Source: a virus (lineage: Duplodnaviria; Heunggongvirae; Uroviricota; Caudoviricetes). Taken from it: a stretch of 64,000 bases of DNA. A model generated the notes under the pieces. It was not told the origin of the DNA. It saw only the letters and a program-made list of their open reading frames with translations, and made no database searches. Location: IMG/VR virus record IMGVR_UViG_3300029656_000140. One strand, written 5' to 3'. Made by a program: the position numbers and the translations under genes. This document shows, piece by piece, positions 31,964-58,016 of this stretch (positions are counted from its first letter, which is position 1; every line of letters starts with the position of its first letter).

Positions 31964-31988
31964 AATCGTATACCTCTTTATAATAATG

Positions 31989-32008
31989 TAAGCAGAGCCG
32001 AAGCCCTG
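31989..32008 (-). promoter_or_regulatory. UUCG-tetraloop hairpin downstream of the major tail protein gene (copy 1)
   Basis: The same 18-nt core gcagagccgaagccctgc is followed by an AU-rich run. Confidence 0.55.
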
Positions 32009-32025
32009 CAGTGTGTGTCGGTCAC

Positions 32026-32640
32026 TTAGCCCTGCGGCTCCTCGGTGTGACTGGTGTCTTCGGTGTCCACAGCTTCCGCCTGCGGCTCGTAGACCGCATC
32101 GTACCACTTGTTATAGACATCATCGGTGGTGTTGGTACCGGTCTTCGCCTTGACATAACCGTTTGCCAGAGGGGTTGCCTGCAGGTTCAGGGTGTCCGTC
32201 TTGACTTCCTTGCTGTCCTCATTGGTCTCACCCTCGATAGACGGACGGCTTGCCACACAGTTGTACAGCACATGACGGATGTGACGCTGGTCGCCATCAA
32301 ACTCGAACAGAAAAGCAAAATGCTCCAGTTCCACATTGGCGTTCTCTGCAAGCACGCCGTTGCCATCCAGCTCCTCGTGCATAATGTCCGTGAGGAAGCT
32401 CTCCGGGATCAGCGCGATCTCCAGATCACCCTCGTAGCCGGAGTTGTTATTCACGACATAGTAGGCGATGTTGTCCGCATAGAACGGTTCAATCTCGCCA
32501 TTGGCATCCATAGAAAGACTGACTGCACCGGGGATGCGGACCGGCTTTGCATAGGTGACACTGCCATCTTCGTCAAAGGTCGCCTTGGCATAATGGCAGT
32601 TTTTCAGGCCAAATTTGACCTTATTGCTTTGCTTCGACAT
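32026..32640 (-). CDS. major tail protein
   Basis: Its position, ~200-aa size and siphovirus major-tail-like sequence fit. RBS AGGAGGAA. An expression-boosting hairpin follows it. Confidence 0.75.
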   Translation of the reverse strand: MSKQSNKVKFGLKNCHYAKATFDEDGSVTYAKPVRIPGAVSLSMDANGEIEPFYADNIAYYVVNNNSGYEGDLEIALIPESFLTDIMHEELDGNGVLAENANVELEHFAFLFEFDGDQRHIRHVLYNCVASRPSIEGETNEDSKEVKTDTLNLQATPLANGYVKAKTGTNTTDDVYNKWYDAVYEPQAEAVDTEDTSHTEEPQG

Positions 32641-40594: not shown

Positions 40595-40650
40595 ACTGTA
40601 TATTACCGTCACCGCCCGGACATAGCAAGCGGCTATGCTGCACGATCATA
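40595..40650 (-). promoter_or_regulatory. conserved promoter cassette copy 1 (-35 TTGCTA, 17 bp, -10 TAATAT, AGCCGCTTG box)
   Basis: The minus strand reads GATCGTG...TAGCCGCTTGCTATGTCCGGGCGGTGACGGTAATATACA. Confidence 0.6.
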
Positions 40651-40740: not shown

Positions 40741-41025
40741 TCAGTGTGCGTTCTTGATGCACCACTCGATCGCGTGACCGGCATCCGTGTAGGTCTCATT
40801 GGAAATCTTCAGAAGCTCCAGTCGGCACTCAATCGGTGACCAGCCTTCCTCTGGGTCTTCGACAAATCCGTATACCGCTCCCTCCAGCATGCCATTCCAG
40901 TTCATCTGGGCAACCAAAACCCGGTCACCGAACTGCATGATGCTGTCGTAGCAAGGTCTGAGTCGGTCGTAGAAACTCTCTATGCTGATGTTGTTTTCTG
41001 GAAAGTCGATCAAAGGCTTTTTCAT
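40741..41025 (-). CDS. hypothetical protein
   Basis: Has its own cassette. A UUCG hairpin terminator lies downstream at ~40700-40730. Confidence 0.5.
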   Translation of the reverse strand: MKKPLIDFPENNISIESFYDRLRPCYDSIMQFGDRVLVAQMNWNGMLEGAVYGFVEDPEEGWSPIECRLELLKISNETYTDAGHAIEWCIKNAH

Positions 41026-41074: not shown

Positions 41075-41130
41075 GTATGTGCATATTACCGTCAGGTGCA
41101 AAGGATAGCAAGCGGCTAAAGTACACGATC
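41075..41130 (-). promoter_or_regulatory. promoter cassette copy 2
   Basis: The minus strand reads GATCGTGTACTTTAGCCGCTTGCTATCCTTTGCACCTGACGGTAATATGCAC. Confidence 0.6.
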
Positions 41131-41714: not shown

Positions 41715-41770
41715 GTATGTGCATATTACCGTCTATGTCACACACTATCAAGCGGCTATACTACACAAAG
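41715..41770 (-). promoter_or_regulatory. promoter cassette copy 3
   Basis: The minus strand reads TAGCCGCTTGATAGTGTGTGACATAGACGGTAATATGCAC. Confidence 0.6.
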
Positions 41771-41848: not shown

Positions 41849-42298
41849 TTAGTAGTCTTCTTCGTCCTCGTAATCTTCCTCTTCGCCCCAGTCATCTTCC
41901 TCTTCATCCCAGCTGTCATCCTGGTCTTCTTCCTCATCCTTGAAGTCCCACATATCTTCGGTCGGCTGGTTTCTAAGGTCTGGGTTCTGCTCAACATAGT
42001 CGGCAACCGCTCCGCAAAGGATGTCCAGAACCTTTTCGTAGGCTTCCTCACTGTAGACTGCCCAGGCATCTGCAGTCAGCTTTGCGATTTTGTCGTTGCC
42101 CTTGGCTCCAAGGAACCGCCCTGCAGGGTTGCAGGTTTCCTTGCCGTAGCCGATGCCCAGCTGGTCGCCGTCGTTGTAAAAGCGGTATCCGATGCGGCTC
42201 ATTGCCCTTACCAGCTCCCCTGCGAGGCTGTCTGCCTTGCCCGTATCCGGTACCAGTTCCTTGAAAAGTTTATTGATGCGGTCTTCGTTCTTCGTCAT
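41849..42298 (-). CDS. hypothetical protein with extremely acidic C-terminal tail (DNA-mimic candidate)
   Basis: The C-terminus is DEEEDQDDSWDEEEDDWGEEEDYEDEEDY. ATG at 42298 follows the RBS GGAGGA. Confidence 0.5.
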   Translation of the reverse strand: MTKNEDRINKLFKELVPDTGKADSLAGELVRAMSRIGYRFYNDGDQLGIGYGKETCNPAGRFLGAKGNDKIAKLTADAWAVYSEEAYEKVLDILCGAVADYVEQNPDLRNQPTEDMWDFKDEEEDQDDSWDEEEDDWGEEEDYEDEEDY

Positions 42299-42342
42299 TG
42301 TCGTATCCTCCAGAATGTTGTTTTCGGTTTTTCTCCCTTTCG

Positions 42343-42398
42343 GTATGCACATATTACCGTCACTTTCGCACACTATCAAGCGGCTAAACTACACGATC
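42343..42398 (-). promoter_or_regulatory. promoter cassette copy 4
   Basis: The minus strand reads TTTAGCCGCTTGATAGTGTGCGAAAGTGACGGTAATATGTGC, a perfect TTGATA-17-TAATAT. Confidence 0.65.
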
Positions 42399-43014: not shown

Positions 43015-43070
43015 TAGCTGTATATTACCGTCACTGCCGGACACTATCAAGCGGCTAAAGTACACGATCA
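43015..43070 (-). promoter_or_regulatory. promoter cassette copy 5
   Basis: The minus strand reads TTTAGCCGCTTGATAGTGTCCGGCAGTGACGGTAATATACAGC. Confidence 0.6.
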
Positions 43071-43329: not shown

Positions 43330-43395
43330 TTGTAGCTGTATATTACCGTCACCGCCCTGTGATAGCAAGGCCATAAAACGTCATATTATCAACGA
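43330..43395 (-). promoter_or_regulatory. promoter cassette copy 6 (variant with GGCCTTGCTAT box)
   Basis: The minus strand reads GATCGTTGATAATATGACGTTTTATGGCCTTGCTATCACAGGGCGGTGACGGTAATATACAGC. Confidence 0.55.
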
Positions 43396-43517
43396 TCTTC
43401 GCCCCTCATGTTTGGTACATATATGACCCCTGATTGACTTGCTATATATGTGTTTCTGCGGCATTATACACACAACGAAAGCAAAGAAAACCAAACCAAA
43501 AACGGAGGACAAAAACC

Positions 43518-43775
43518 ATGAAAAAGACCATTACAGAAGTTGAAACCGCAATCGAAAACCGCATCGCAGAGCTTGAAGAAGAATACGAGCTGGACATTTA
43601 CGACCGCAACGACATCCGGGAAGAAGAATACCAGAAAGCCGGATGGCGGCACGACCCTTTCCCAGAGGAGCTTGAGGAAGAGGAAGAGGACGAAGAAGAG
43701 GAAGAGGATTGGCACTACCACAGCATGGAGGAACGACTGAACGAGGTCGGCATGAGCATGAGGGATTTCTTCTAA
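43518..43775 (+). CDS. small poly-glutamate acidic protein (DNA-mimic candidate), the only plus-strand gene in the island
   Basis: It contains ELEEEEEDEEEEEDWHYH. RBS AACGGAGGA. A hairpin follows at 43792-43809. Confidence 0.5.
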   Translation: MKKTITEVETAIENRIAELEEEYELDIYDRNDIREEEYQKAGWRHDPFPEELEEEEEDEEEEEDWHYHSMEERLNEVGMSMRDFF

Positions 43776-44236: not shown

Positions 44237-44608
44237 TTATTCCGGCTTCGTTCCGTCATCCATCTGGATGACTGCCATCTGCCCGAACATGCTGACGAAT
44301 GCCTCCGGCACCCAGAAGCGTTCCCTGAATTTCCTGAGCAGGTCCTGGGGCAGCTCTGCGAAATCTTCCTCGCCCAATCCGCAGATGAAGAAGTTTCCCT
44401 TGATAGGCTGCTCCAGTTCCGGGATGTATCTGCTGAATGACTTCTCGGTGAACAGACCGTTGTCATCGGTGACCAGGGCGGCACGTTCTTCCCACGGGTA
44501 GGTGGCTGTGATGCAGTCGCAGTCGAGGATGCGGTAGAACTCTTTCAGGGAGTTTTCAATGTCCACCACCTGCGGATGCTCCATCGGTTTGATCAGAAGA
44601 ACTTTCAT
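44237..44608 (-). CDS. DUF3846-like protein
   Basis: MKVLLIKP...GNFFICGLGEEDFAELPQDL matches the DUF3846 pattern. Confidence 0.55.
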   Translation of the reverse strand: MKVLLIKPMEHPQVVDIENSLKEFYRILDCDCITATYPWEERAALVTDDNGLFTEKSFSRYIPELEQPIKGNFFICGLGEEDFAELPQDLLRKFRERFWVPEAFVSMFGQMAVIQMDDGTKPE

Positions 44609-45072
44609 TCGACCCATCCCCCTTTCACGATTGCCCAGTCTGCAAGATGCATCTTCTGCTGTCCGCCCCATGCAATGTCCTCTAATGCTTCCTCCGTTCC
44701 GCAGCGGTTGCAAATCTGGATGTCCGCCCTTCGGCTGAGTGCCTGCTGCTGATGGTCGTAGCAGTCAGGCTTTGCTCCGCACCTGGGGCAACGTGGGCCG
44801 GTCTGTCGCGTTTTACCAAAGTGGTCGAGCGACACCTTGACCTCGGCATCCGTTGCCACACGGTGGCAACTGTCCGCGCCGTAGGCAACATTAAGATGGC
44901 TTCCGGTGTCCCAGTTCACCAAGATGTTTCCGGCATCATCGACCCCGTTGCAGGTTCCCTGCGTTCCGATGGGCGGTGCCTGCCTATCATCCATCTCATC
45001 GAGGACGATCCGGCATCTGACCGGGAACTCTTTTCTCAACTTCTTGACCATTTTCTGATCTGCGAAATTCAT
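44605..45072 (-). CDS. DUF4314-like protein with C-terminal Cys4 zinc ribbon
   Basis: RIVLDEMDDRQAPPIGTQGTCNGVDDAGNILVNWDTGSHLNVAYGADSC is DUF4314-like. CPRCG...CNRCG follows. Confidence 0.55.
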   Translation of the reverse strand: MNFADQKMVKKLRKEFPVRCRIVLDEMDDRQAPPIGTQGTCNGVDDAGNILVNWDTGSHLNVAYGADSCHRVATDAEVKVSLDHFGKTRQTGPRCPRCGAKPDCYDHQQQALSRRADIQICNRCGTEEALEDIAWGGQQKMHLADWAIVKGGWVE

Positions 45073-45554
45073 GCCTGCACCTCCTCGATCATCCGCTGGG
45101 CGGCATCCTTATCCATGCATTCCTTCAGCGCACCTTCGAGGATGTGCATCGGGAAGTGGAATGCCTTGTAGCCGTCATGCAGGACTTTGTAGTAATACCG
45201 GCTCGGTGAGCGGCGTCCGAAGTCGTTCTCCATGATGTAGACCATTGCGGTCACCATCTCCGGCTCTGCCCCTTCCCGGAGCAGTTCGATGTTCAGGTCT
45301 TCCTTGCGGTAGTAGTTCGGGTAGCCCTCATAGAGGTCGAGGTTTCCTTCGTCCCTTTCCGAGATCTCCCACACCAGAACCGGCGTATTCTTCTTCGGGT
45401 TCGGCGCGATGGTAGCGCAGCCCCGGAACAAAAGCTCCCAGCCGGCCAGCACCGCCTGTCCTGCGATTCGGGCATCCGGACACCGGTATGCCATCTGCTC
45501 TACCGACAGGTTGCTGCCGTAGGCAATGTAGTATTTCTTGTTCTTCATATTCAT
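45069..45554 (-). CDS. gamma-glutamyl cyclotransferase (GGCT/AIG2-like) family protein 1
   Basis: YYIAYGSNLSVEQM...AGWELLF...VLVWEISERDEGNLDLYEGYPNYY is the GGCT/AIG2 signature. Confidence 0.75.
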   Translation of the reverse strand: MNMKNKKYYIAYGSNLSVEQMAYRCPDARIAGQAVLAGWELLFRGCATIAPNPKKNTPVLVWEISERDEGNLDLYEGYPNYYRKEDLNIELLREGAEPEMVTAMVYIMENDFGRRSPSRYYYKVLHDGYKAFHFPMHILEGALKECMDKDAAQRMIEEVQA

Positions 45555-45594
45555 TCGCTCCCTTCAAGCTCTGTTTTCTTCCGCTCTTGTCTGG

Positions 45595-45645
45595 CGGTAT
45601 GGTATATATCACTCTTTTGCCCTGATTTATCAAGGCCGATGAGTT
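45595..45645 (-). promoter_or_regulatory. promoter cassette copy 7 (subtype B: GGCCTTGATA...AGAGTGATATAT)
   Basis: The minus strand reads GGCCTTGATAAATCAGGGCAAAAGAGTGATATATACC. Confidence 0.5.
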
Positions 45646-45686
45646 TCATATCCTGCACAATGTTTTCTGCCTGTGATCGTGTACTT

Positions 45687-46217
45687 TTACACCATCCGCA
45701 GTTTCTTCAGATACCGGACGGCTTCTGTTCGTCCGATACTGGCGGCAAGCCCTCGCTTCAGTGTGTCTGTCGGAAACTCCCAATCGCTGTATCCTCCACA
45801 GAGCAAATCGAAATACTCGGCATCCGGGCAGCCAAGCTGCCGCTCCTCGTGCATCACATAGGCCATGCAGGTCTTCGGCTTCTTCATGCGGTTACCGCTC
45901 ATGTTCCAGACGGGAAGCTGGAACTGCTTCTTGTAGTAGTACCGCGGGAAGCCCTCGTACCGGTCCAGCAGAAGCTCATCGTATTCCGAGAGTTTCCAAA
46001 CCACAGCCGGTACGCTTTCGTTGGCATCCTGCTCGATGGTAGCGTAGCTCCCGGTCTTACTCTTCTTGAACAGGAGCCGGTAGCCGTAGATCTCAGTCAC
46101 ACCGACCGGCACTGCATAGGGGCATCTCCGTCCCATCCGTTCCATGTCGAGGTTGCTTCCGTAGGCAAGATAGAACTTGGATGGCGTCCGGCTGATCATT
46201 TCAAACTGCTCATTCAT
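45687..46217 (-). CDS. GGCT/AIG2-like family protein 2 (paralog)
   Basis: FYLAYGSNLDMERM...YGYRLLF...AVVWKLSEYDELLLDRYEGFPRYY. ATG at 46217 follows the RBS GGGAGGACGG. Confidence 0.75.
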   Translation of the reverse strand: MNEQFEMISRTPSKFYLAYGSNLDMERMGRRCPYAVPVGVTEIYGYRLLFKKSKTGSYATIEQDANESVPAVVWKLSEYDELLLDRYEGFPRYYYKKQFQLPVWNMSGNRMKKPKTCMAYVMHEERQLGCPDAEYFDLLCGGYSDWEFPTDTLKRGLAASIGRTEAVRYLKKLRMV

Positions 46218-46449
46218 CCGAACCACCGTCCTCCCTGCCCATAAATTCCACACCCTGAAAATCTTCCTTTTCAAGTTCGATCTGGCTGTCCTGCCACCAG
46301 TCCTCCGCCATGCGCTCGGCTTCCTGGACGGTTGGCTCTTTCATTTCGGATTCATACACCGTGATGGTTCTCTGGTAGGTTTCGGTGATGGTCACCTTGA
46401 ATGCCCTTCCCATCTGGGTGATTTCATTTTTTACCGTGCTTTTTTTCAT
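46210..46449 (-). CDS. DpnD/PcfM-like small protein
   Basis: FKVTITETYQRTITVYESEMKEPTVQEAERMAEDWWQDSQIELEKEDFQGVEF matches the DpnD/PcfM pattern. Confidence 0.65.
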   Translation of the reverse strand: MKKSTVKNEITQMGRAFKVTITETYQRTITVYESEMKEPTVQEAERMAEDWWQDSQIELEKEDFQGVEFMGREDGGSDE

Positions 46450-46516
46450 AATCCTGCACCTCCTTCTACCACCTCAAGGGCGGTTTCCCGCCCAAAAGGT
46501 GCCCGTGCATTCCGGC

Positions 46517-47452
46517 TTATTTGTTCCGCCAGGATGCGTTGCCCTCCATGTTCCGCAGAAGGATTTCCCTTGCCGTTGCAAATTCCTCACCGATGAATCC
46601 CAGCCTCAGCATCCAGCACCGCATTGCGTATTTGTCGTTGTCGGTCTGCTGGGGTCTTGGGCTTGCCGTTCTGACCATCTTGGCAAGCTGGCTCATTGCA
46701 AGGCAAAGCTGGATGTAGGCTTTCATCTCACCGGCATGCAGTCCGTTGCGCTTTCCATCCGCAGGGTCGGCAAATTGGAAAAGCCGAAATTCAATGGTTC
46801 CCTTTGTGAAAGTGGCATGCAGGTTCAGCATGTGGTATCGGCTTGAATTGTAGTGTTGGCTTCTGCCGTAGTCGGCTCCATTGCCCTCGTACCAGATGTC
46901 TGCAAGCTGGCTCATGGTGGTCGGCTTCTCGCGGTTCAGCCGTTCAAGAAAGCGGTGGTTGACCACCTGGCAATAATGTCCGGTGCGCCCCGCATCGATG
47001 CGGATGGCTCTGCCAATCTGTCGCTCATGCGCCGCCATGATGTTTACCAGATTCCGCAGGGTCTTTGCAGTGTGGTCGCCTTTTCCGATGTGAATGTGGA
47101 CTCCGCAGCCGCGACTTGGTCCACTTTTTCCTCCTGCCTTGCGGAGCAGCCGGATGATGTCCTGCAGGGTTTCGATGTCCTCGTAGATGAGGATCGGGGT
47201 GACCAATTCGCATTTCTCAGCGTCCGGTCCGTTGATGCTCACATCCCTCTGGAACTTCCAAACTCTGCCCTGCTGGTCTTTGCAAGCCCAGCTGGAATAT
47301 CCGTACTCGCTGGCGGCATTCCATGCTCTGGTTCCGAAGTATTCGGCAACCTTTCTGGCAGCCTTTTCTCTGGTGATGTTGTTCATCTCGATCTCAACCC
47401 CGATGGTCTGCTTCTTCATGGCTTCAATCTGCTCTCTCGTTTTATCGTTCAT
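46517..47452 (-). CDS. amidoligase (GCS2/glutamine-synthetase-like carboxylate-amine ligase, Amidoligase_2-type)
   Basis: IGVEIEMN (GxExE strand), CGVHIHIG and GTIEFRLF are hallmarks of the family. ATG at 47452 follows the RBS AAAGGAGAA. Confidence 0.75.
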   Translation of the reverse strand: MNDKTREQIEAMKKQTIGVEIEMNNITREKAARKVAEYFGTRAWNAASEYGYSSWACKDQQGRVWKFQRDVSINGPDAEKCELVTPILIYEDIETLQDIIRLLRKAGGKSGPSRGCGVHIHIGKGDHTAKTLRNLVNIMAAHERQIGRAIRIDAGRTGHYCQVVNHRFLERLNREKPTTMSQLADIWYEGNGADYGRSQHYNSSRYHMLNLHATFTKGTIEFRLFQFADPADGKRNGLHAGEMKAYIQLCLAMSQLAKMVRTASPRPQQTDNDKYAMRCWMLRLGFIGEEFATAREILLRNMEGNASWRNK

Positions 47453-47489
47453 GGTATGTTCTCCTTTGCTTTTTCCTTGTTTTCCGTTT

Positions 47490-47550
47490 CGGTATGTGCA
47501 TATTACCGTCTTACGCACACGATAGCAAGGCCATAAAAGAACATATATTC
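47490..47550 (-). promoter_or_regulatory. promoter cassette copy 8
   Basis: The minus strand reads ATGGCCTTGCTATCGTGTGCGTAAGACGGTAATATGCAC. Confidence 0.6.
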
Positions 47551-47683
47551 GACAAATATGAGGTCGAAAGATCGTGTACATTTCTGCGGTTTATCCGCTT
47601 GATAATGTACATTTTCAGAGTTATTATCGGTACAATGGAAGAGGGTCTCGCATATTTCCGGCCCCCATTGGGGACTTGGGAGC

Positions 47684-48775
47684 TTACGCTCCCGCCTCCA
47701 GCATCTGCGCCGTGTCTGCCCCACAGTCGGGCTGTGTCGGCTGGTTTTCTTCCTGTTCGACCGTTTCCCCTGTGGCAGGATCGCTGTTCTGTGCCGCCAG
47801 TTTCGCGGCTTTCAGGGCATCCCGTTTTGCCTTTTCCCTTGCAAGAAACTTCTGTGCTTCCTCATCCGTGCGGAAAGCCGCATGGCCGGAAAGGTTCTCC
47901 ATGAGGATCTTGCGTGTCTCTTTGAAATCCGGACCGTTCATCCCCAGCCGCAGGAGCCATGTGCGGAGTGCGTATTTCTCATTCTCATCGTTGACATCCT
48001 TTGCCTGGATACGTTTCTGGCTGATGGCCTGCTGGTTCATCAGGATGGCAAGGTGGCCAAAAGCCGTTAGGTGATCATAGTCGGAAGCCGTCGGGAATCC
48101 TGTGAAGGAAACCTTTTCTTCTGTGATCACCAGACCTTCCATCGCAGTTCCGCACTGTGCTTCGTAACTCTTAAGCGCCTCGATGAAGTTTGCCACCGTG
48201 TAAGTACAGCTGTCATCCCGCAGTGTTTCGACCAGATCGGTTTCCACATGGAAGTGCCCACCCGTTGCCTTGCTGATGAGTCGGCCCCGGCTGTAGATGA
48301 GGTTGACCAGATTGCGAAGGCTCACGCCGTTATGCTGGCTGGTGGGGAAAGCAAGTTCCAGATCCAGCGGCACTTCTTCCGGCTGGTCTTCTGCTTCCGG
48401 CTGCTCTTCGCTTTCCGATTCCTCTGCATCCGGCTCATCCTCTGTTGCACCATCCTCTGCCGTATCATCCGGCTCCTCTTCGGTCACAGGCTCCGCTGTC
48501 AAATTCTCAGTCGGCTCTGTGTTTTCCGGCTGGTCATCCGTGCTCTCAATGCTCTCGCCGCCGCGGATCAGTCCCTCATTCAGCAGGGTCGTCAGCAGCT
48601 CGGCATCTGCATTCTCCGGCTCGACCAGAAGATTGCCGTCCCGGTCGATGGTGTAGTTGCCGATGTCATAAGCATACAGCGGTGCTCTGGTGTAGTAAGG
48701 ATGGATACCCGTCAGCTCCTCCATGCGATTTGCAAGTGTCTTACGGTCTGCTATGTTCAATTCAAATTTCAACAT
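47684..48775 (-). CDS. divergent amidoligase paralog with ~80-aa acidic low-complexity insertion
   Basis: The C-terminal half aligns with 46517-47452 (NEKYALRTWLLRLGMNGPDFKETRKILMENLSGHAAFR versus NDKYAMRCWMLRLGFIGEEFATAREILLRNMEGNASWR). It carries GGHFHVE. RBS AAAGGGG. Confidence 0.6.
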   Translation of the reverse strand: MLKFELNIADRKTLANRMEELTGIHPYYTRAPLYAYDIGNYTIDRDGNLLVEPENADAELLTTLLNEGLIRGGESIESTDDQPENTEPTENLTAEPVTEEEPDDTAEDGATEDEPDAEESESEEQPEAEDQPEEVPLDLELAFPTSQHNGVSLRNLVNLIYSRGRLISKATGGHFHVETDLVETLRDDSCTYTVANFIEALKSYEAQCGTAMEGLVITEEKVSFTGFPTASDYDHLTAFGHLAILMNQQAISQKRIQAKDVNDENEKYALRTWLLRLGMNGPDFKETRKILMENLSGHAAFRTDEEAQKFLAREKAKRDALKAAKLAAQNSDPATGETVEQEENQPTQPDCGADTAQMLEAGA

Positions 48776-48999: not shown

Positions 49000-51129
49000 T
49001 TATTCTTCCAGACCTGCACACCATGCGATGCCGGCCAGAACAAAAAATGCGTTGGCCAGGCATATGCCGTTGCCCCAGATACGGTACTCTGCCGAATCTG
49101 TATACGGGTCAGCCAGCCATTTCCGGATCTGTTTCTCCGTTTTCGGCTTCTTGGCGTGGGTCACGATCTTGCGGTGCGTTTCAAACGCATCTGCCCAGAA
49201 CGTCAGCTCTTCTTCGGTCGGATCTTCTGTTCCAAGGTTCCGGCACCACCAGTCCGGGAAGCCCTGCAGTCTGGCACACTCGGTCGGTGTCAAGCGGCGG
49301 ACGGTATAGGTCACAGGTGCAGGCTGTGCTTCCGGGTTGTCGATGACCAGACGGTCATTGAAAACGTCCTGCCCGTTAAAGCCGCTGGGATGTGCCCCGG
49401 TTGCCACGGTTCCCATGACACCCTCGTTCAGATGCGGCACCGGCGCGATGGTGGTCGGGTCTTTGTAGTCCCGTGCCATCAGGGTCGGTGCGACTTCTTT
49501 TTCCACCTGCATATAGGAGCCGGTGGTCATGGCATACACATCCTCCGGTGCGCAGACTGCATGGCGGTCAGTGGCATCCAGTGTAAAGCAGACATCCTCA
49601 TTGACGCCATCTCCCTGCGGACCGTTCTCATCCTTGCGGCCGATCATGTTGCCCTGCAGGACGAAGGTCTGCTGCTTCATCCCCGGCTCTGCTGCAAGTG
49701 CCGCTGACTTCTCTCCCAGATCCCGGACTTCATCCCTCTGGTTCTGGGTAAAGGCGACCGGCTCTACCACACAGATACCGCCCTGATTGCAGGTCGGATC
49801 TCCACCACTGCGGTCTAGTGTCCGGGAGGTCTCCGCTTCATAGAAGCCGCTATGCGGATTATCGGACATCATGGAGTGGCTGGCTTTAGAGCAGACACCG
49901 TAGCATTTCGGAACGAACAGTGTCTGGTCGTTGTTGCAGCCGAGGGTAGCTGACTTTTCTTCCTGCCAGATAGCGCCCTTGCCACCGCCTTCACACCCGG
50001 AACGGATCTTCAATGTGACCGCCGGAGAGTTTTCAACTTCTTTCACCGGGCTTTCCACTGAATTTTCAACAGCGTCCATGACCATCGGGACATTACCGCC
50101 ACCCGTACCACACCGGCTTGTCAGTGTCTGTACCTTACCGTCCTCGGAAATCTTCACCCGGCTGTCCGCAGGATGATTTTCCAGTGCGATGGCGGCCGGC
50201 ACGACACCAGCCCGGAGGGTCGGTGACCGTTCCTCTTCGTATCCAATGCTTCTGGCATTTGCGGAATGCTCGGTACAGAAACCAGCGGCTTCCATAACAC
50301 ACGGCGGATGATGTGCCTCCGCACGGAGGGTGGCTGTCACCTCTTCCGTCACATCCATCCTCTCTACGCCCTGATCGTTCAGACAGAGCCGTCCTCCTGC
50401 TCCACTGCAGCCTGTCTCTCCAGCGCCGCTTTCAGCACCGGCGGCAGCTCTTTGCCACGCACGGAAGCTCTCCGCAGAATACCGAGACACGCCTTCGGAC
50501 TCAAATAATACCTTTGGGGCACTCTGGTCTGCAAAATCTGCGACAAGGTAGATACGTTTTCTTCTTTGGGGAACGCCCCACCATTGTGCATCAAAAACTC
50601 GATACGCGACGCTCCATCCGTCTCCCACGTAGTAGTCAGCGTCGGGCCATCCTTTCTTCTCAGGCGCAGGCACCGAGGCGGACGGTTCTTTAACACCGAT
50701 GACGGCTTCGAGGACTGCTTTGAAGTCCTGTCCTTTGTTTGAGGAGAAGGCCCCTGGCACATTCTCCCACACGATAAATCTTGGTTTTTCTCCATTGGTC
50801 TTACACCTCATTTCCTTCACGATTCGGATTGCTTCGTAAAACAGGCTGGACCGTGAACCATCCAGACCGTCCCGCTTACCCGCGATGGACATATCCTGAC
50901 AGGGACTGCCAAAAGTGATGATGTCTACAGGAGGTAGGTCTGCACCGCTGATGGCAGACACATCTCCATAATGCTTCACCTGCGGCAGACGCTTGGTCGT
51001 GACCCGGATGGCAAACGGCTCGATCTCACTGCTCCACACCGGAGTGATCTGCCCGGTCAAAAGCCCGCCCAATGGAAAACCCCCGGAGCCATCAAAGAGG
51101 CTGCCGAGGGTCAGCTGTTTATTCTCCAT
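49000..51129 (-). CDS. DNA (cytosine-5)-methyltransferase with a very large variable/target-recognition insertion
   Basis: Motif I LFDGSGG, motif IV GSPCQDMS, motif VI ENVPG, and C-terminal RLTPTECARLQGFPDWW. About 400 aa lie between the ENV region and the C-terminal motifs. Confidence 0.85.
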   Translation of the reverse strand: MENKQLTLGSLFDGSGGFPLGGLLTGQITPVWSSEIEPFAIRVTTKRLPQVKHYGDVSAISGADLPPVDIITFGSPCQDMSIAGKRDGLDGSRSSLFYEAIRIVKEMRCKTNGEKPRFIVWENVPGAFSSNKGQDFKAVLEAVIGVKEPSASVPAPEKKGWPDADYYVGDGWSVAYRVFDAQWWGVPQRRKRIYLVADFADQSAPKVLFESEGVSRYSAESFRAWQRAAAGAESGAGETGCSGAGGRLCLNDQGVERMDVTEEVTATLRAEAHHPPCVMEAAGFCTEHSANARSIGYEEERSPTLRAGVVPAAIALENHPADSRVKISEDGKVQTLTSRCGTGGGNVPMVMDAVENSVESPVKEVENSPAVTLKIRSGCEGGGKGAIWQEEKSATLGCNNDQTLFVPKCYGVCSKASHSMMSDNPHSGFYEAETSRTLDRSGGDPTCNQGGICVVEPVAFTQNQRDEVRDLGEKSAALAAEPGMKQQTFVLQGNMIGRKDENGPQGDGVNEDVCFTLDATDRHAVCAPEDVYAMTTGSYMQVEKEVAPTLMARDYKDPTTIAPVPHLNEGVMGTVATGAHPSGFNGQDVFNDRLVIDNPEAQPAPVTYTVRRLTPTECARLQGFPDWWCRNLGTEDPTEEELTFWADAFETHRKIVTHAKKPKTEKQIRKWLADPYTDSAEYRIWGNGICLANAFFVLAGIAWCAGLEE

Positions 51130-52390
51130 CAGCGACCTCCCTTTCCGGCTCGAAGGTCGCCACTTCCTCGAACTTCAGCTTCTGACTGTCACGGATGACA
51201 TACACATCATCGTAGTGACCCTCGCTGTGTTCGATATAACGCTTCACGATCACATCCACGAACTTCGGGTCCAGCTCGATGCCTCGGCACACACGGTCGG
51301 TTTCTTCGCAGGCGATCAGGGTAGAACCGCTGCCAAGGAACGGATCAAGGACGATACCGTTTGTCATAGTGGAATTGCGGATCGGATAGCTCATCAGGCC
51401 GATGGGCTTCATGGTCGGATGGTCCTTGTTGGACTTCGGCCGGTCATACTCCCAAATGGTCGTCTGCTTTCGGTCGGAATACCACTGGTGCTTTCCCTTC
51501 TGCTTCCAGCCGTAGAGACACGGCTCGTGCTGCCACTGGTAAGGACTTCGTCCCAGCACCAGAGCATTCTTCTTCCAGATACAGCACCCGGACAGGTAGA
51601 ACCCGGCATCCTTGAATGCCTTTCTAAAGTTCAGCCCTTCCGTATCTGCATGGAAGATGTAGATGGAGCCGTCATCCGCCAGATGACCATGCATCTGCTG
51701 GAATGCTGCCAGAAGGAACTGGTAGAATTCCGAGTCACCCATGTTGTCGTTCAGGATCTTGCCAGCCGTTTCTTCCACATCCACGTTATAAGGGGGATCG
51801 GAAAGTACCAGATTTGCCTTGGTGCCGTCCATCAGGGTATCGTAGCATTCTGGCTTGGTGGAATCGCCGCACAGAACGATGTGCTTACCCAGATGCCAGA
51901 GGTCGCCCTCTTTGGAGAAGCACGGCTGCTTCAGCTCCGATTCCACATCGAAGTCATCTTCCTTGACCTCTTTGCTGTGGACCTTGTTGAACAGCGTCTC
52001 GATCTCAGGCGGGTCAAAGCCTGTCTTACCGAGGTCGAAGTTGGAATCTTCGATGTCCTTGAGCAGGTCAGCCAGCAGAGAATCATCCCATGCACCCGTG
52101 ATCTTGTTGAGTGCGATGTTCAGGGCTTTCTCCCTGGTCTTGTCGATGTCCACCACCGCACAAGGCACTTCGGTGTATCCCAGCTCCATCGCTACGGTCA
52201 GTCTCTGGTGACCACCGATGATCGTCATGTCGGCATTGACCACCAAAGGATCTGCGAAACCGAACTCCGTGATGGAATTCTTGATCTTCTCGTACTCTTT
52301 ATCCCCCGGCTTCAGCTTTTTCCGGGGATTGTATGCAGCCGGCTTGAGTACAGACACCGGCAGCATCTTTAGTTCAGCAGTCGCTTTCAT
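51119..52390 (-). CDS. ParB-like nuclease domain fused to N6-adenine/N4-cytosine DNA methyltransferase
   Basis: The N-terminal ParB/Srx fold (KPAAYNPRK, IIGGHQRL) is followed by DPPY and the SAM-binding motif VLDPFLGSGST. Confidence 0.85.
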   Translation of the reverse strand: MKATAELKMLPVSVLKPAAYNPRKKLKPGDKEYEKIKNSITEFGFADPLVVNADMTIIGGHQRLTVAMELGYTEVPCAVVDIDKTREKALNIALNKITGAWDDSLLADLLKDIEDSNFDLGKTGFDPPEIETLFNKVHSKEVKEDDFDVESELKQPCFSKEGDLWHLGKHIVLCGDSTKPECYDTLMDGTKANLVLSDPPYNVDVEETAGKILNDNMGDSEFYQFLLAAFQQMHGHLADDGSIYIFHADTEGLNFRKAFKDAGFYLSGCCIWKKNALVLGRSPYQWQHEPCLYGWKQKGKHQWYSDRKQTTIWEYDRPKSNKDHPTMKPIGLMSYPIRNSTMTNGIVLDPFLGSGSTLIACEETDRVCRGIELDPKFVDVIVKRYIEHSEGHYDDVYVIRDSQKLKFEEVATFEPEREVADGE

Positions 52391-55026: not shown

Positions 55027-57456
55027 TCACAAAAGACTGTCCTTTGGCTTATATGCGTCCTGTACCGTCAGGTCTTCCGCTCCAGCTTCTACTTCCTTGA
55101 ACTTGCAGTCCATGATCAGCGTAGTCTGTCCGCCACCGCCTTTGGGGCGCTTTCGGACCACTTTGAAATGCACGCCGATAGCATTTTTAAAGTTCTTCTG
55201 ATTCTCTGAGGAATACCCGTTCTCCTCACACCACTTTGTGTACAGCTGGTATGCTGCTGCCGTCCGAAGTTCCGACCCATCCTCTTTTTCAAGCCACGCC
55301 TCAATGAACTGCCCGATCCGATCAGAATCATCCTTGTAATCTTCCGTTGCTTTCGTGACAGCCTGCGGAAGTTCCAAACCCCGCTGGCAGAACTTTTTGT
55401 ACCCTTCCAGACACCAGTTGAAAATACCTGACAGGTTCTCCGGCTTCGCAAACTGCCCCTTCAGCCCCTGGTCCTGTTCTCCCTCTTCAAAATGACGGTT
55501 AAATGGGATGATCTTCAGTCGGCCGGATTGGAACAAGGTCATATCATTGACATTAGGCAGGTAGTTCGTATTGATAAAAATCTTGAACACCGGCACAAAA
55601 TCAAAGCTGTTCTCATTTAGGAATCGGGCGTTGATGGTATCGTTGCCGGTCATTCTTTTTACGAGAGCTGCATTAAATGTGATCTTCTTCTCCGGCTCAG
55701 AGATATTTACAAATCTGAAGCCGACCAGACGAGCCACTTCTTCCGAAGGTCCGCCTGTGTTCCCACCACGGAATTTAGCTGCCAGCATATCCGGATTCGA
55801 TGTCTTTCCATAGTCGCCCATGATCTTCAGGAAGGTTTCCATTGCAGTGCCTTTGCCGTTTCGGGAAGTGGCACCGTAAAGGATAAACATACACTCCTGC
55901 GAGGTATCTCCTGTCAGGGCGTATCCCAAAGAACGCTGAAGGAAGTCTGCCAGATCTGCATCTCCACACATGACCTCCTTGATAAACGAGTGCCAGCGTG
56001 GACAGTCTGCATCCGGGTCATAGGTAATACCGGATTCCATTGTGAGATAATCCTCCGGCCGATGTTCCCTGAATTCCAGTGTCCGCATATCCAGCGTTCC
56101 ATTTTTGCAATTAAAGAAATACTTGTTCCTGTCGAATGCCTGCATGGAGATTGGATACACGGACATGGCATCTTTCAGCATCGTTTCCCGATTCTTACGC
56201 AGCTGCAGTTTTCGGACACGGTCGATGAACCGCTTCCTGGCATCCTCTTCGGTGATCGTCAAAGCAAACACATACAGCTTGTCAGCCAGCAGCTTTGCCA
56301 GTTCCGATACCTTGAGATTGCCTTTGTCCGGCCGCCAGACAGATCCGTCATAGACATACCAGCCTTTACGTTCACTGTTGTACCGGGCAATCTGCTTGAA
56401 ATAATCCGCAAACATATTGCCCATGCCGATCTCATTTCTGCCATACCGGGCATTTGTGTGCGGTGCCATTTCCTCCAGCGTGATCGTGATCTTGGTGAGA
56501 TCCGGCTGGAATTCGACATAGTCATCCTCATCCAGCTTGGAAAACTCCTCATCCACGATATCCTGTGCGTTGACCGGCATATAGACGGCCGAACAGGTAT
56601 TGACGGTATTGCGGATAGAGATCGCGCCGTAGGTCGAACCAGCCTGTTTTCTGTCCCACTTGTCGCGCATCAGGCCAGAGGTACGGAAAATGCGGTCCAT
56701 CTGCTCCTCATCACAGCCACACCAGAATGCCAGAATAGACAGCAATGCCATATCTGCATCCGACTGGCTACCGTAAAGGTCTTCCCAGTCACCGGCAAAG
56801 AGTTTTTTGAACTTTTCCGAGTTGCTGGCTTCATTGGCGTGCGCGATGACAGCCTCGTCGTCCAGGTACGAATGGTGCTGGAAATGTGTCTGCTGCACCT
56901 GCTTGTTTCGCTTCATCAGCGTGTCCAACAGTGTCGTCATTGCGGTTTCATCGTTCGGGATCTCACCTGTGCGGTAAACATCTCCCGTCACTGTGACGAA
57001 GCGGTTTGTCGCACCGGGCATATACACTTCCAGACCCTTGCTGCGGTTATTGATGTAGTAGACCGTCTTGTCATAGACGTAGTCTTCCGGCACACAAAAG
57101 AAACCTCGCAGTCCTTTGCCGGACGGAGATTTTTCCACGTAAGCCGTAGGAAAGATGGAAAGGACGGTATCCGCCGTATCGTTCAGCGTACCATCCTCCC
57201 GGATACAGTGGTCGATATCAAAAGCTCCGATTCCGTTGCCAACAGCAATACCGATACCGTCATAACCGCCCATCGCATAGGTGACAAGGGTATTCTTGAA
57301 ATCCGAAAATGTACGCAGGTCATTGATCTTTGCCCGTTCTCCCGTTGCCGGATTGTACGGCATCTTGGTCTTCTGGCCATTACGCTTTTCAAACTTCCAG
57401 ACACAGAAGCTGCAGGTCGTTTTCAGCTTGCCCGGAATGTTCTTGATGTCCATCAT
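55027..57456 (-). CDS. DNA primase/helicase (AEP prim-pol N-domain + D5_N + SF3 helicase; P4-type)
   Basis: The AEP motif GAFDIDHC and the Walker A YGATSRNGKGT are present. It is ~800 aa. Confidence 0.85.
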   Translation of the reverse strand: MMDIKNIPGKLKTTCSFCVWKFEKRNGQKTKMPYNPATGERAKINDLRTFSDFKNTLVTYAMGGYDGIGIAVGNGIGAFDIDHCIREDGTLNDTADTVLSIFPTAYVEKSPSGKGLRGFFCVPEDYVYDKTVYYINNRSKGLEVYMPGATNRFVTVTGDVYRTGEIPNDETAMTTLLDTLMKRNKQVQQTHFQHHSYLDDEAVIAHANEASNSEKFKKLFAGDWEDLYGSQSDADMALLSILAFWCGCDEEQMDRIFRTSGLMRDKWDRKQAGSTYGAISIRNTVNTCSAVYMPVNAQDIVDEEFSKLDEDDYVEFQPDLTKITITLEEMAPHTNARYGRNEIGMGNMFADYFKQIARYNSERKGWYVYDGSVWRPDKGNLKVSELAKLLADKLYVFALTITEEDARKRFIDRVRKLQLRKNRETMLKDAMSVYPISMQAFDRNKYFFNCKNGTLDMRTLEFREHRPEDYLTMESGITYDPDADCPRWHSFIKEVMCGDADLADFLQRSLGYALTGDTSQECMFILYGATSRNGKGTAMETFLKIMGDYGKTSNPDMLAAKFRGGNTGGPSEEVARLVGFRFVNISEPEKKITFNAALVKRMTGNDTINARFLNENSFDFVPVFKIFINTNYLPNVNDMTLFQSGRLKIIPFNRHFEEGEQDQGLKGQFAKPENLSGIFNWCLEGYKKFCQRGLELPQAVTKATEDYKDDSDRIGQFIEAWLEKEDGSELRTAAAYQLYTKWCEENGYSSENQKNFKNAIGVHFKVVRKRPKGGGGQTTLIMDCKFKEVEAGAEDLTVQDAYKPKDSLL

Positions 57457-58016
57457 GCCTGTGCCTCCCTTCCCATACAAGCCTGCATCGCAAACTGCTT
57501 TTTAACCGCAGCTTCGATCTCCTGCTTTTTCCTGGCCGAGGTCACACGGCAGAGCCGGTTGCACAGAACCATCTTGTCAATGGTCGTGATCTGCTCCACC
57601 AGCAGAATGGATTCTTCCAGTCCCTCATCCCGGAGCATTTCGCAGTCTCTCCCGGTGACCGGAATGTGTACCGGCAGCTCCAGCTTCTTCAGCTTGGAAC
57701 TCATCGGGATTACCGTGATAATCGGAGAATTGCGGTTTGCCATATCGTTGCTGATAACCAGCACCGGGCGGTTTCCGCTCTGCACCGAAGTGCCATAATG
57801 ATTCCCCAGTTCTGCAAACCAGATCTCATACTGCTTCGGTATCTTTGGTACCGGCCATCTGGTAAGCGGCATCTCCTGAAGCAGCACTCTATTAGGTGCC
57901 GGCTGACAGGAGGCTACTGCCCTTTTCTTGGTCTTCCCTCGCTGATTGATGTATTTATTAACGTGGATCTTTCGTCCATGTGCTGCTGACCGGGCATTCT
58001 TTTTCTTTCTCCCCAT
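57453..58016 (-). CDS. PemK/MazF-fold protein with basic N-terminal extension
   Basis: EIWFAELGNHYGTSVQSGNRPVLVISNDMANRNSPIITVIPMSS matches the MazF/PemK core. RBS GGAGGTGA. It is the first gene after promoter 58170-58205. Confidence 0.6.
   Translation of the reverse strand: MGRKKKNARSAAHGRKIHVNKYINQRGKTKKRAVASCQPAPNRVLLQEMPLTRWPVPKIPKQYEIWFAELGNHYGTSVQSGNRPVLVISNDMANRNSPIITVIPMSSKLKKLELPVHIPVTGRDCEMLRDEGLEESILLVEQITTIDKMVLCNRLCRVTSARKKQEIEAAVKKQFAMQACMGREAQA

Follow-up and report, generated by a model that had tools for sequence, protein, structure and literature searches.

A putative gamma-glutamyl ligation and cyclotransferase operon beside a degenerate amidoligase paralog in a Heliusvirales-type temperate phage

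Results

Gene content of the locus

The 64,000-nucleotide stretch of viral DNA analyzed here (hereafter the window) belongs to a Heliusvirales-type temperate siphophage, a prophage of gut Clostridia. An ORF check of the window found all five genes that had been singled out in an earlier note, namely, two amidoligase-like genes (AL1 and AL2), two GGCT-like genes (GGCTa and GGCTb), and a DpnD/PcfM-like gene, on the minus strand. These genes and the features around them are listed below.

40741–41025, minus strand: Nmad4-domain protein (Pfam Nmad4, 8.3e-20), close to the terminase genes; backbone context
44237–44608, minus strand: DUF3846 protein (Pfam DUF3846, 8e-22, from residue 36 of the long ORF)
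44605–45072, minus strand: DUF4314 protein (Pfam DUF4314, 1.4e-25) with a C-terminal Cys4 zinc-ribbon-like segment
45069–45554, minus strand: GGCTa, GGCT-fold protein, derived copy (Pfam GGACT, 5.9e-12)
45687–46217 (longest ORF to 46274), minus strand: GGCTb, GGCT-fold protein, ancestral-type copy (Pfam GGACT, 3.1e-9)
46210–46449, minus strand: DpnD/PcfM-like small acidic protein, 79 aa (Pfam PF14207, 29.2 bits, cutoff 25)
46517–47452, minus strand: AL1, active-type Amidoligase_2 enzyme, 311 aa, pI 9.4
47500–47529, minus strand: sigma-A-like promoter motif (CTTGCTA and TAATAT on either side of a 17-nt spacer whose last bases are GACGG)
47684–48775, minus strand: AL2, amidoligase paralog predicted to be catalytically dead, 363 aa, pI 4.3
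49000–51129, minus strand: Dcm-type C5 DNA methyltransferase (Pfam); backbone context
51119–52390, minus strand: ParB-N6/N4 DNA methyltransferase (Pfam); backbone context

The methyltransferase pair (49000–52390) lies directly upstream of AL2, and a locus comparison showed that the gene order ParB-methyltransferase, Dcm, AL2 recurs in related loci. Dcm has been reported in 67% and MetK in 59% of Heliusvirales genomes (PMC11283538). Synteny showed that the Nmad4 protein is kept in related phages both with and without AL1 and GGCT, and DUF4314 is likewise a backbone gene, which occurs in a Streptococcus phage block lacking AL1 and GGCT.

AL1 and its degenerate paralog

AL1 matched Pfam Amidoligase_2 with an E-value of 8.4e-54 (183.5 bits, cutoff 22). 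The GVEIE, HIHIG, and TIEFR motifs, which the earlier note had taken as amidoligase hallmarks, are present in AL1 and map to E20, E22, H119, H121, E221, and R223, each at least 90% conserved among 66 diverse homologs; the placement in this family was thus borne out. Every residue conserved at this level across the 66 homologs is kept in AL1. Structure prediction gave a confident model with a GS/GCL fold, and the C-terminal three-helix domain, which is specific to the subfamily, is shared with AL2. By sequence, neither AL1 nor other Amidoligase_2 members matched any solved structure, solved GCLs included, and we know of no Amidoligase_2 member whose substrate has been established.

AL2 had no match in Pfam, PF14395 included. 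A family-to-family comparison using hhalign identified it as a collinear, full-length homolog of AL1 (probability 100%, E-value 6e-59), and the match persisted after removal of the shared C-terminal domain (99.9%, 4.6e-33), against an E-value of 0.19 for a reversed-sequence control. AL2 also matched PHROG 2443 (4.9e-39). It is therefore a divergent paralog, as had been proposed, although its acidic insert is 66 aa long (aa 72–137; 29 Asp or Glu and no Lys or Arg) rather than approximately 80 aa; this insert and the C-terminal tail are predicted to be disordered. In all 66 orthologs of AL2 examined, E20, H119, H121, R156, E221, and R223 are lost and the Y201–H212 block is deleted. Judged by these residues, AL2 cannot carry out ligation, and AL1 is the sole predicted catalytically competent ligase of the two; the locus has two amidoligase homologs, as the earlier note stated, but not two enzymes. 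The AL2 family is large, although neither Pfam nor NCBIfam has a model for it, and it is widespread in the absence of AL1, following Dcm even in phages without the ligase and GGCT. AL2 is part of the backbone that these phages conserve from the methyltransferases to the terminase.

GGCT paralogs and the DpnD-like gene

GGCTa and GGCTb both exceed the Pfam GGACT gathering score and share 33% sequence identity (E-value 6e-29), which confirms that they are two paralogous proteins of the GGCT/AIG2 fold. GGCTb matched PHROG 2520 (8.5e-36), and GGCTa matched human GGCT (2pn7) in a phmmer search (3.4e-5) with the YGSNL motif and the catalytic Glu aligned. Both motifs are kept in 111 of 111 orthologs; GGCTb has YGSNL and the equivalent of Glu98. 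The position aligned with human Tyr105 is Tyr in GGCTb and in single-copy GGCTs, whereas 43 of the 49 A-type (GGCTa) copies have Arg. The most likely start of GGCTb is the ATG at 46217, which is preceded by a GGAGGA ribosome-binding site and gives an 8-nt overlap with the DpnD stop.

The DpnD/PcfM-like gene separates AL1 from GGCTb and does not, as first described, separate the two GGCT genes. It was found in 61 of 63 loci with at least two GGCTs, compared with none of 28 loci with one or none.

Operon structure and promoter

The −35 (TTGCTA, 47528–47523) and −10 (TAATAT, 47505–47500) elements of the promoter motif lie 48 nt upstream of the AL1 start codon. The motif has seven exact matches in the window, all on the minus strand, with 0 expected in 100 shuffles, and most related loci of the "long" layout have the AL1 copy in the corresponding position. 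Stop and start codons overlap by 8 nt at DpnD/GGCTb and by ATGA at both GGCTa/DUF4314 and DUF4314/DUF3846. DUF3846 probably starts with the ATG at 44608, which overlaps the stop codon of DUF4314. From these overlaps, DUF4314 is predicted to be translationally coupled to GGCTa, and DUF3846 to be the last tightly coupled gene. AL1, DpnD, GGCTb, GGCTa, DUF4314, and DUF3846 thus form a predicted accessory, moron-like operon with its own conserved sigma-A-like promoter; AL2 is transcribed upstream of this operon and separately from it.

Co-occurrence and mobility of the ligase and cyclotransferase genes

Among 97 distinct related loci with enough downstream sequence, AL1 is followed by a GGCT in 96 and by two GGCTs in 66, and AL2 precedes AL1 in 86; the loci are not independent because they represent one phage lineage, picked by AL1 similarity. 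The two GGCTs and the AL2 copy are therefore normal for the lineage, as is their site beside the methyltransferases and MetK, which the earlier note had called unusual. Nearly all of 45 phage-database records with this GGCT have AL1 a few hundred bases away. AL1 and GGCT lie before DUF4314 in the long layout and after it in the short layout, which lacks DpnD and DUF3846 yet retains AL1 and GGCT; otherwise syntenic Streptococcus phages lack the pair. The pairing recurs in unrelated phages, namely, the Gram-positive phages Bacillus 035JT001 and Arthrobacter Salgado and the Gram-negative podophages LUZ24, phiEco32, and RIO-1. The "anti-defence island" remains conjecture: PADLOC models matched 0 of 8 scanned operon and neighbor proteins, and the analysis turned up no anti-defence protein of a known kind.

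Discussion

Proposed function

The function that we tentatively favor as the most likely is ATP-dependent formation of a gamma-glutamyl-amine bond, followed by cyclotransferase removal, with a small-molecule amine as the substrate. AL1 would be an ATP-dependent carboxylate-amine ligase of the glutamate-cysteine-ligase/glutamine-synthetase fold that most likely takes L-glutamate, phosphorylates its gamma-carboxylate, and couples it to a primary amine, most likely an amino acid, polyamine, or other metabolite. In the GGCTs, the free alpha-amino group would attack the gamma-glutamyl amide, releasing 5-oxoproline and the amine, and each paralog probably serves a different gamma-glutamyl substrate. 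The gamma-glutamyl group could thus be a transient handle or protecting group; alternatively, the pair might simply convert glutamate to 5-oxoproline at the expense of ATP. For AL2, the C-terminal domain that AL1 also has may support a role in scaffolding or binding. We infer glutamate as the acid substrate, as well as which amine is used, when expression takes place, and how the phage benefits.

To our knowledge, all characterized GGCT-fold enzymes have small-molecule substrates, and the ligate-and-cleave logic of the earlier note appears reasonable, its family assignments being correct. No additional pathway enzymes are conserved across the loci between the ligase and the cyclotransferase; a protect-and-deprotect pathway would therefore need to borrow host steps. 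With a constitutive promoter, a net drain of glutamate to 5-oxoproline would presumably harm a lysogen, and the basic pI and extra conserved C-terminal domain of AL1 might indicate that its partner is a macromolecule and not a metabolite. The searchable literature contains annotation-level mentions of the pair and no experimental characterization, in agreement with its description as predicted only.

Alternative functions

An unlikely alternative is that the ligase attaches an amino acid to an amine of a peptidoglycan or teichoic-acid precursor, such as the Lys or DAP epsilon-amine of UDP-MurNAc-peptide, and that gamma-glutamyl intermediates are trimmed or recycled by the cyclotransferases; the cell surface would then be altered after infection or in the lysogen, and superinfection would be blocked. 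Envelope modification has been proposed for the podophage cassette with Amidoligase_2, GGCT, GATase, and ATP-grasp (PMC5498523; gene list in PMC3890496) and again for Clostridium prophages (PMC11318856), and the moron-like promoter of an operon in a temperate phage is consistent with it. However, the podophage hypothesis is itself a proposal, and the ATP-grasp, GATase, and COOH-NH2_lig members were not found in the window scan. Moreover, L-Ala blocks the alpha-amine of D-isoglutamate in the peptidoglycan stem peptide and thereby puts it out of reach of GGCT chemistry, and inspection of the translations (by eye, not with a signal-peptide predictor) showed no membrane or secretion features.

We consider it improbable that AL1 mono-gamma-glutamylates lysines of a host or phage protein, with the GGCTs as erasers and AL2 as a subunit that targets, regulates, or serves as a decoy. 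The opposite pI values of AL1 (9.4) and AL2 (4.3) and their shared conserved C-terminal domain suggest a common partner or heterodimer, and AL2 stands ahead of AL1 in most loci. Against this, we know of no GGCT-fold enzyme that acts on intact proteins, and because AL2 is widespread without AL1, its main role cannot be that of an AL1 subunit.

DNA or nucleotide hypermodification, in which an amino-acid adduct on a base is built or trimmed together with Dcm, the ParB-N6/N4 methyltransferase, MetK, and Nmad4, is very improbable. The operon adjoins two DNA methyltransferases and MetK, the block includes a "nucleotide modification associated" domain (Nmad4), and thymidine-hypermodification clusters in viral metagenomes co-occur with amidoligase and amidotransferase genes (PMC8989533). 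However, the methyltransferases, AL2, DUF4314, and Nmad4 remain together where AL1 and GGCT are absent, so this neighborhood reflects the backbone rather than the cassette; the pair has other contexts in the Bacillus and Arthrobacter phages, and no hydroxymethylase, 5-hmdU kinase, aGPT-Pplase, or TET/JBP was found among the scanned window ORFs.

Finally, Pup-like attachment of a small neighbor (DpnD, DUF4314, or DUF3846) to target lysines through a C-terminal glutamate, akin to the peptide tag of the earlier note, is extremely unlikely despite the GS-like fold common to AL1 and PafA, the GGSDE C-terminus of the window DpnD, and the terminal Glu of DUF3846 in 44 of 45 orthologs, because a cyclotransferase depends on a free alpha-amino group and is therefore unable to act on a glutamyl residue in which that group is part of a peptide bond. 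In addition, the DpnD C-terminus varies (V, E, D, M, A, or G), no Pup-like C-terminus is conserved among the small neighbors, no Dop-like deamidase is present, and the short layout keeps AL1 and GGCT without DpnD or DUF3846.

Comparison with known systems

Compared with pupylation (PafA, Dop, and Pup), the window has no Pup-like tag, AL2 has lost its catalytic residues, unlike the active Dop, and the removal enzyme has an unrelated fold and needs a free alpha-amine. In the gamma-glutamyl cycle, GCL acts first and GGCT then yields 5-oxoproline; AL1 is much smaller (311 aa) and has no detectable similarity to solved GCLs. In butirosin biosynthesis, a protective gamma-glutamyl group is added by BtrJ and removed by BtrG, which has the GGCT fold, and in ergothioneine biosynthesis, it is added by EgtA, a GCL-family ligase, and removed by EgtC. 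In both, the group is put on by an ATP-dependent ligase and taken off by an enzyme dedicated to that step, a likeness of mechanism rather than membership: BtrJ belongs to the ATP-grasp enzymes and EgtC to the Ntn hydrolases, unlike the window enzymes, and the intermediate enzymes are encoded alongside, whereas none is conserved in the window lineage. BtrG is also mentioned as the partner of BtrH (PMC8430323).

Arthrobacter Salgado (gp97–gp99) and Bacillus 035JT001 (gp41/gp45) encode an amidoligase and GGCT together, as in the window, and in Salgado GGCT, amidoligase, and a glutamine amidotransferase (GATase) are adjacent. Their ligases have 23 to 27% identity to AL1 and lack the C-terminal domain, the matches ending near residues 223 to 267, and a tblastn search with AL2 returned neither phage. 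The podophage "peptidoglycan modification/gamma-glutamyl" cassette (phiEco32, LUZ24, PaP3, tf, RIO-1, and PSA-HP1) has Amidoligase_2, AIG2/GGCT, and two ligase-like genes and lies in an early-gene region (PMC3890496; PMC5498523). Its seven genes include COOH-NH2_lig (PF14395), class-II GATase, and ATP-grasp, all three absent from the window; AL2 has no PF14395 match and is predicted to be dead.

The pairing of Amidoligase_2 with an AIG2/GGCT neighbor in Firmicutes phages and prophages was reportedly predicted by Iyer, Abhiman, Burroughs, and Aravind in Mol Biosyst in 2009, and the Pfam family description of PF12224 (Amidoligase_2) presumably mentions the same neighborhood. The window locus has the same families, order, and element type, AL1 passes all family tests run, and we found no difference in kind. 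The gene pair, predicted years ago, is very common in these phages, and to that predicted system the window locus adds a derived second GGCT, a DpnD-like gene, and an adjoining degenerate ligase paralog.

An intact ligase and a predicted pseudoenzyme

The genes of the locus are as follows.

51119-52390, minus strand, ParB-MT (ParB-N6/N4 methyltransferase)
49000-51129, minus strand, Dcm
47684-48775, minus strand, AL2 (363 aa), paralog of AL1
46517-47452, minus strand, AL1 (311 aa), amidoligase
46210-46449, minus strand, DpnD (DpnD/PcfM-like protein)
45687-46217/46274, minus strand, GGCTb (gamma-glutamyl cyclotransferase-fold, AIG2/GGACT)
45069-45554, minus strand, GGCTa (gamma-glutamyl cyclotransferase-fold, AIG2/GGACT)
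44605-45072, minus strand, DUF4314 protein
44237-44608, minus strand, DUF3846 protein

AL1 matched the Pfam Amidoligase_2 profile (PF12224) over its full length (183.5 bits, threshold 22; E = 8.4e-54; 244 of 245 profile positions), which bears out the earlier note's placement of 46517-47452 in the amidoligase family, and it has the GS/GCL catalytic fold. AL1 was aligned with 65 homologs of 34-64% identity, taken from a search that gave 4320 clusters at E ≤ 1e-3. The conserved set consisted of G18, E20, E22, R63, W65, D70, E82, H119, H121, R156, Y201, R205, Y206, N210, H212, E221, and R223, every one of which is present in AL1; among them, E20, E22, H119, H121, R156, R205, N210, H212, E221, and R223 were at least 90% conserved among the 66 aligned sequences. 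No solved structure gave a sequence match to AL1 or to its family profile, and domain fusions were uninformative, with no second Pfam domain in the 10 longer Amidoligase_2 homologs scanned.

AL2 matched no Pfam or NCBIfam model, and its BLASTP similarity to AL1 was confined to the last 67 residues, although PHROG 2443 spans AL2 end to end. No Pfam match was obtained for 39 members of the AL2 family even at E up to 1, by which the podophage ligase COOH-NH2_lig (PF14395) was rejected as an identity for AL2. In a profile-profile comparison, 66 AL2 orthologs aligned with 72 AL1 orthologs over 250 collinear columns (probability 100%, E = 6e-59). When the shared C-terminal domain was removed, AL2 still matched the AL1 core with a probability of 99.9% (E = 4.6e-33; reversed control, E = 0.19), and the N-terminal and middle parts of AL2 aligned separately, each at the expected AL1 positions. 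These alignments indicate that AL2 is a true paralog of AL1. Its acidic segment, which the earlier note put at about 80 residues, is a true insertion but a shorter one of about 66 residues (72-137), with 29 D/E and no K/R, and its length varies among orthologs. Across the 66 AL2 orthologs, the catalytic residues were substituted (E20 to K, H119 to E/T, H121 to A/S, R156 to L, E221 to S/T, and R223 to T) or deleted (R63 and the entire Y201-H212 block), whereas the C-terminal G285, G288, and R295 were invariant (n = 66). The earlier view of two amidoligase paralogs is thus right as to paralogy but not as to two ligases: AL1 is the only one of the two predicted to be catalytically competent, and AL2 is a conserved, predicted pseudoenzyme.

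Large protein searches run once with AL2 and once with its profile gave mostly near-identical sequences (at least 83% identity); for diversity, the AL2 set drew on the fetched loci and on a third search that started from short homologs. This short AL2-like family is a large one, with at least 8000 scored candidates, some of which may be AL1 proteins picked up by the C-terminal domain that both share; the best 120 of these at least 8000 matches were all full-length proteins of 227-262 aa, and no Pfam or NCBIfam model matched the family. Its members are named "virulence protein" by NCBI, and AL2 homologs in phages of Streptococcus, Erysipelothrix, Gardnerella, and C. botulinum, where no full-length AL1 match was found, are annotated "virulence(-related) protein."

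Other arrangements were seen elsewhere. In another phage (locus L203, 6001-9716), Amidoligase_2 forms the N-terminal domain of a 956-aa protein whose gene is followed by one for a class-II GATase-like protein, a single case; the pair lies in the head-morphogenesis region beside the portal and a 1226-aa MuF-like protein, a placement that hints that some amidoligases may be virion-associated. In a Wujia chipingensis contig (L171), the AL1 ortholog is split into 10621-11247 and 14680-15030 by an insertion of ~3.4 kb, probably a mobile element, in an otherwise intact operon. Interrupted (intron-like) amidoligase genes were also considered and rejected; the two-piece tblastn matches spanning 1.5-1.8 kb were the AL2 C-terminal domain and AL1, encoded by adjacent genes.

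Cyclotransferases and DpnD

The two GGCT/AIG2-fold paralogs that had been recognized at 45-46 kb were confirmed: GGCTa and GGCTb scored 46.7 and 37.9 bits, respectively, against the Pfam GGCT/AIG2-like (GGACT) model PF06094 (threshold 22.8), matched PHROG 2520 (9.5e-42 and 8.5e-36), and are 33% identical to each other. GGCTa, aligned with human GGCT (2pn7), keeps the YGSNL substrate-binding motif and the catalytic Glu98. Among 111 orthologs of both paralogs, Y, G, and E were invariant and S, N, and L nearly invariant, and by these residues both enzymes look active. The position aligned with human Tyr105 is usually Arg in A-type GGCTs, whereas Tyr is kept in B-type and single-copy GGCTs; this fits A-type GGCT being a derived copy with altered specificity.

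The gene at 46210-46449 matched the full 46-position DpnD/PcfM profile (PF14207; 29.2 bits, threshold 25; E = 9.1e-7), in agreement with the family assigned earlier, but it sits between AL1 and GGCTb and not between the two GGCT genes. It is translationally coupled to GGCTb. No NCBIfam model matched any of the seven proteins searched or the short AL2 homologs.

A cassette on a phage backbone

The window genes are all on the minus strand and together make up a temperate siphophage, with three large serine recombinases, a lysin, tail genes including a 1984-aa tape-measure protein, capsid, ClpP protease, portal, TerL, TerS, and a run of small genes. On the other side of the AL1/GGCT region are Dcm, ParB-MT, MetK, a D5-type primase-helicase, an SNF2 helicase, and a DUF932 protein. 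The nearest annotated relatives are Ca. Heliusvirales gut phages, and the nearest genome match is a Clostridium fessum prophage, whose neighboring genes are 86-100% identical; further relatives occur in Blautia (including Blautia faecis), Faecalibacterium, Lawsonibacter, and Selenomonas. Phages of this lineage occur widely in the human gut (PMC11283538).

Several other features of the window were recorded.

1695-3683, 6898-9105, and 9102-11309: serine recombinases (Resolvase and Recombinase domains) at one prophage end, the latter two adjoining and overlapping
5386-6048: PBECR4 nuclease-domain protein, between large serine recombinases
31136-32107: SPFH/Band-7 domain protein (E = 6e-17) between capsid and tail genes, an unusual site for this domain
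40741-41025: Nmad4 ("nucleotide modification associated domain 4") protein of 94 aa (Pfam, 8e-20) near the terminase genes, which in related phages, of the gut and of Streptococcus, keeps its place beside TerL
41849-42379, minus strand, and 43434-43775, plus strand: small proteins without a family match, with extremely acidic D/E-rich tails, which could be DNA-mimic-like; the second is the sole plausible plus-strand ORF of its region
57453-58016: PemK/MazF-type toxin-domain protein (E = 1e-20), directly upstream of and overlapping the D5-type primase-helicase (55027-57480)

The comparison covered 108 distinct AL1 genes of viral contigs and genomes; for 97 of these, at least 1.5 kb of downstream sequence was available. 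As these loci were picked by AL1 similarity and share common ancestry, the counts describe one lineage and not independent events: a GGCT gene lay within 3 kb of AL1 in 96 of the 97 loci (two copies in 66, one in 29, and three in 1), DpnD accompanied AL1 in 61 of 63 loci that have at least two GGCTs and in 0 of 28 that have one or none, and AL2 was directly upstream of AL1 in 86 of the 97. The AL1-GGCT co-occurrence that the earlier note proposed to look for in other phages is thus found, both here and in unrelated phages. By contrast, neither the duplication of both enzyme types nor the placement beside methyltransferases and MetK is unusual, as had been supposed; both are the norm in this lineage, as the GGCT and AL2 counts and a published account (PMC11283538) show.

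Two layouts recurred. The long layout is ParB-MT, Dcm, AL2, AL1, DpnD, GGCTb, GGCTa, DUF4314, and DUF3846, and the short layout is ParB-MT, Dcm, AL2, DUF4314, AL1, and GGCT, then Nmad4 and TerL. The Streptococcus phage loci examined had TerS, ParB-MT, Dcm, AL2, DUF4314, Nmad4, and TerL, with no AL1 or GGCT. Because the two layouts recur and the Streptococcus block lacks AL1 and GGCT, we assign AL2, DUF4314, Nmad4, and the methyltransferases to the backbone, the methyltransferase-to-terminase block, and regard AL1 plus GGCT (with or without DpnD and the second GGCT) as a mobile cassette found at two different backbone positions. The AL2-like family travels with DNA methyltransferases beside terminase genes in many Firmicutes phages. 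The following AL2-like genes, located directly after Dcm and between TerS and TerL, belong to Streptococcus phages without the active ligase.

Locus L138, 4581-5264
Locus L195, 6001-6735
Locus L199, 6001-6684

Promoter and transcription unit

A 30-nt motif, CTTG(A/C)TA-N12-GACGGTAATAT, is built like a sigma-A promoter, with TTGCTA or TTGATA followed after a 17-nt spacer by TAATAT. Exactly seven copies, all exact matches on the minus strand, were found in the window, with 0 expected by chance.

40600-40629, minus strand, promoter motif
41083-41112, minus strand, promoter motif
41723-41752, minus strand, promoter motif
42351-42380, minus strand, promoter motif
43022-43051, minus strand, promoter motif
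43340-43369, minus strand, promoter motif
47500-47529, minus strand, promoter motif

Six of the copies are each followed by a small gene, at 40.5-43.4 kb, and the seventh is 48 nt upstream of AL1. Each is embedded in a repeat of ~90 nt, in which GACGG, which is invariant, and GTGTAnTTTAGCCG upstream point to a possible regulator-binding site. A generic promoter scan missed the repeated promoter because each hexamer matches at only 4/6 positions. The number and position of the motif are conserved across dozens of related phages, and most related loci of the long layout have the AL1 copy in the same position.

At DpnD/GGCTb, GGCTa/DUF4314, and DUF4314/DUF3846, the stop codon of one gene overlaps the start codon of the next. 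Because of these overlaps downstream of AL1 and the promoter upstream of it, AL1 through DUF3846 most likely form a single transcription unit; AL2 is part of the preceding unit, together with the methyltransferases. An Rfam search of 39-56 kb gave no riboswitch or other RNA match, even at E up to 1.

Possible chemistry and rival explanations

GCL/GS-fold ligases phosphorylate the glutamate gamma-carboxylate and then add an amine, and GGCT-fold enzymes cyclize a gamma-glutamyl residue with a free alpha-amine to 5-oxoproline and release the amine. The locus holds an intact ligase of the first fold and intact enzymes of the second that are co-inherited and most likely co-transcribed, and the simplest joint reading is that a mono-gamma-glutamyl amide would be made by AL1 and later removed by the GGCTs. 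A small-molecule amine would be the favored target of AL1 because all characterized GGCT-fold enzymes, to our knowledge, act on small molecules and because AL1 is closest to the GCLs. The outcome could be either a gamma-glutamyl handle of the transient kind seen in butirosin and ergothioneine biosynthesis or a glutamate-to-5-oxoproline shunt driven by ATP.

A protein writer-eraser pair with AL2 as an adaptor is a rival explanation. We also considered that AL1 and the GGCTs might write and erase a single gamma-glutamyl group on a macromolecular amine (a lysine of a host or phage protein, or an amino group of DNA or a nucleotide) as a new system for host takeover or counter-defense; AL2, with its acidic disordered insert and the C-terminal domain common with AL1, would then be the targeting or decoy subunit. 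We judge this proposal improbable. None of the PADLOC defense-system models matched the proteins scanned (8/8 without a match). Modification of a cell-envelope precursor, the hypothesis published for the podophage cassette, is a further rival. DNA hypermodification by the ligase and cyclotransferases is weakened, since the methyltransferase and Nmad4 neighborhood persists without the cassette and the window ORFs scanned included no hydroxymethylase, kinase, or TET genes. Pup-like tagging is likewise weakened by the GGCT chemistry and by DpnD C-termini that vary (V, E, D, M, A, G); no conserved GGE/GGQ was found at the C-termini of DpnD, DUF4314, and DUF3846.

Should the product be a new metabolite or a new mark on macromolecules, it would be important for gut phage-host biology, and a true macromolecular writer-eraser would be a modification system unknown till now in one of the most widespread human-gut phage lineages; a simple glutamate-to-5-oxoproline shunt would be a modest metabolic curiosity.

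Comparison with known systems

The AL1/GGCT module is real and conserved. An Amidoligase_2-AIG2 neighborhood was reportedly predicted by Iyer in 2009, and the window locus is a member and an ordinary representative of it. Since then the pairing of amidoligase and cyclotransferase has stood as a computational prediction: in the searchable literature we found neither an experiment that tests it nor experimental work on the Amidoligase_2 or GGCT proteins of any phage, nor biochemical data for any Amidoligase_2 family member. The window locus is the smallest form of the pair, with one ligase of predicted active type plus GGCT, and its close relatives in prophages of cultivable human-gut Clostridia, together with the wide spread of the phage lineage in the gut, make it a practical entry for biochemistry. 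Beyond the literature found, the locus adds that the second "ligase" is a widespread predicted pseudoenzyme tied to the phage backbone, that DpnD is linked to the second GGCT copy, and that the cassette has a conserved promoter.

Annotation of Amidoligase_2 and GGCT genes is routine in PHROGs, and prophages of Clostridium clostridioforme have been listed with similar pairs (PMC11318856). Independent support comes from the unrelated Bacillus phage 035JT001, which has an amidoligase and a GGCT as here, from Arthrobacter phage Salgado, and from the podophages LUZ24, phiEco32, and RIO-1, whose cassette has both Amidoligase_2 and GGCT. In Salgado, the GGCT, amidoligase, and glutamine amidotransferase (GATase) genes are adjacent and are the last three at the right genome end (L206, 3192-5768); GGCT and glutamine amidotransferase stand side by side there, and the partner types therefore co-occur and do not replace each other.

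AL1 and GGCT were likened to the pairs GCL plus GGCT and BtrJ plus BtrG but belong to neither. Pupylation has a Pup-like tag with a C-terminal Gly-Gly-Glu/Gln and a Dop-type paralog, unlike this locus, in which AL2 is without catalytic residues. Another comparison is with the seven-gene podophage cassette, of which the window locus is a reduced version: the cassette includes COOH-NH2_lig (PF14395), a class-II GATase, and an ATP-grasp enzyme, whereas the window has just its Amidoligase_2 and GGCT, with DpnD, DUF4314, DUF3846, Dcm, and ParB-MT as their neighbors.
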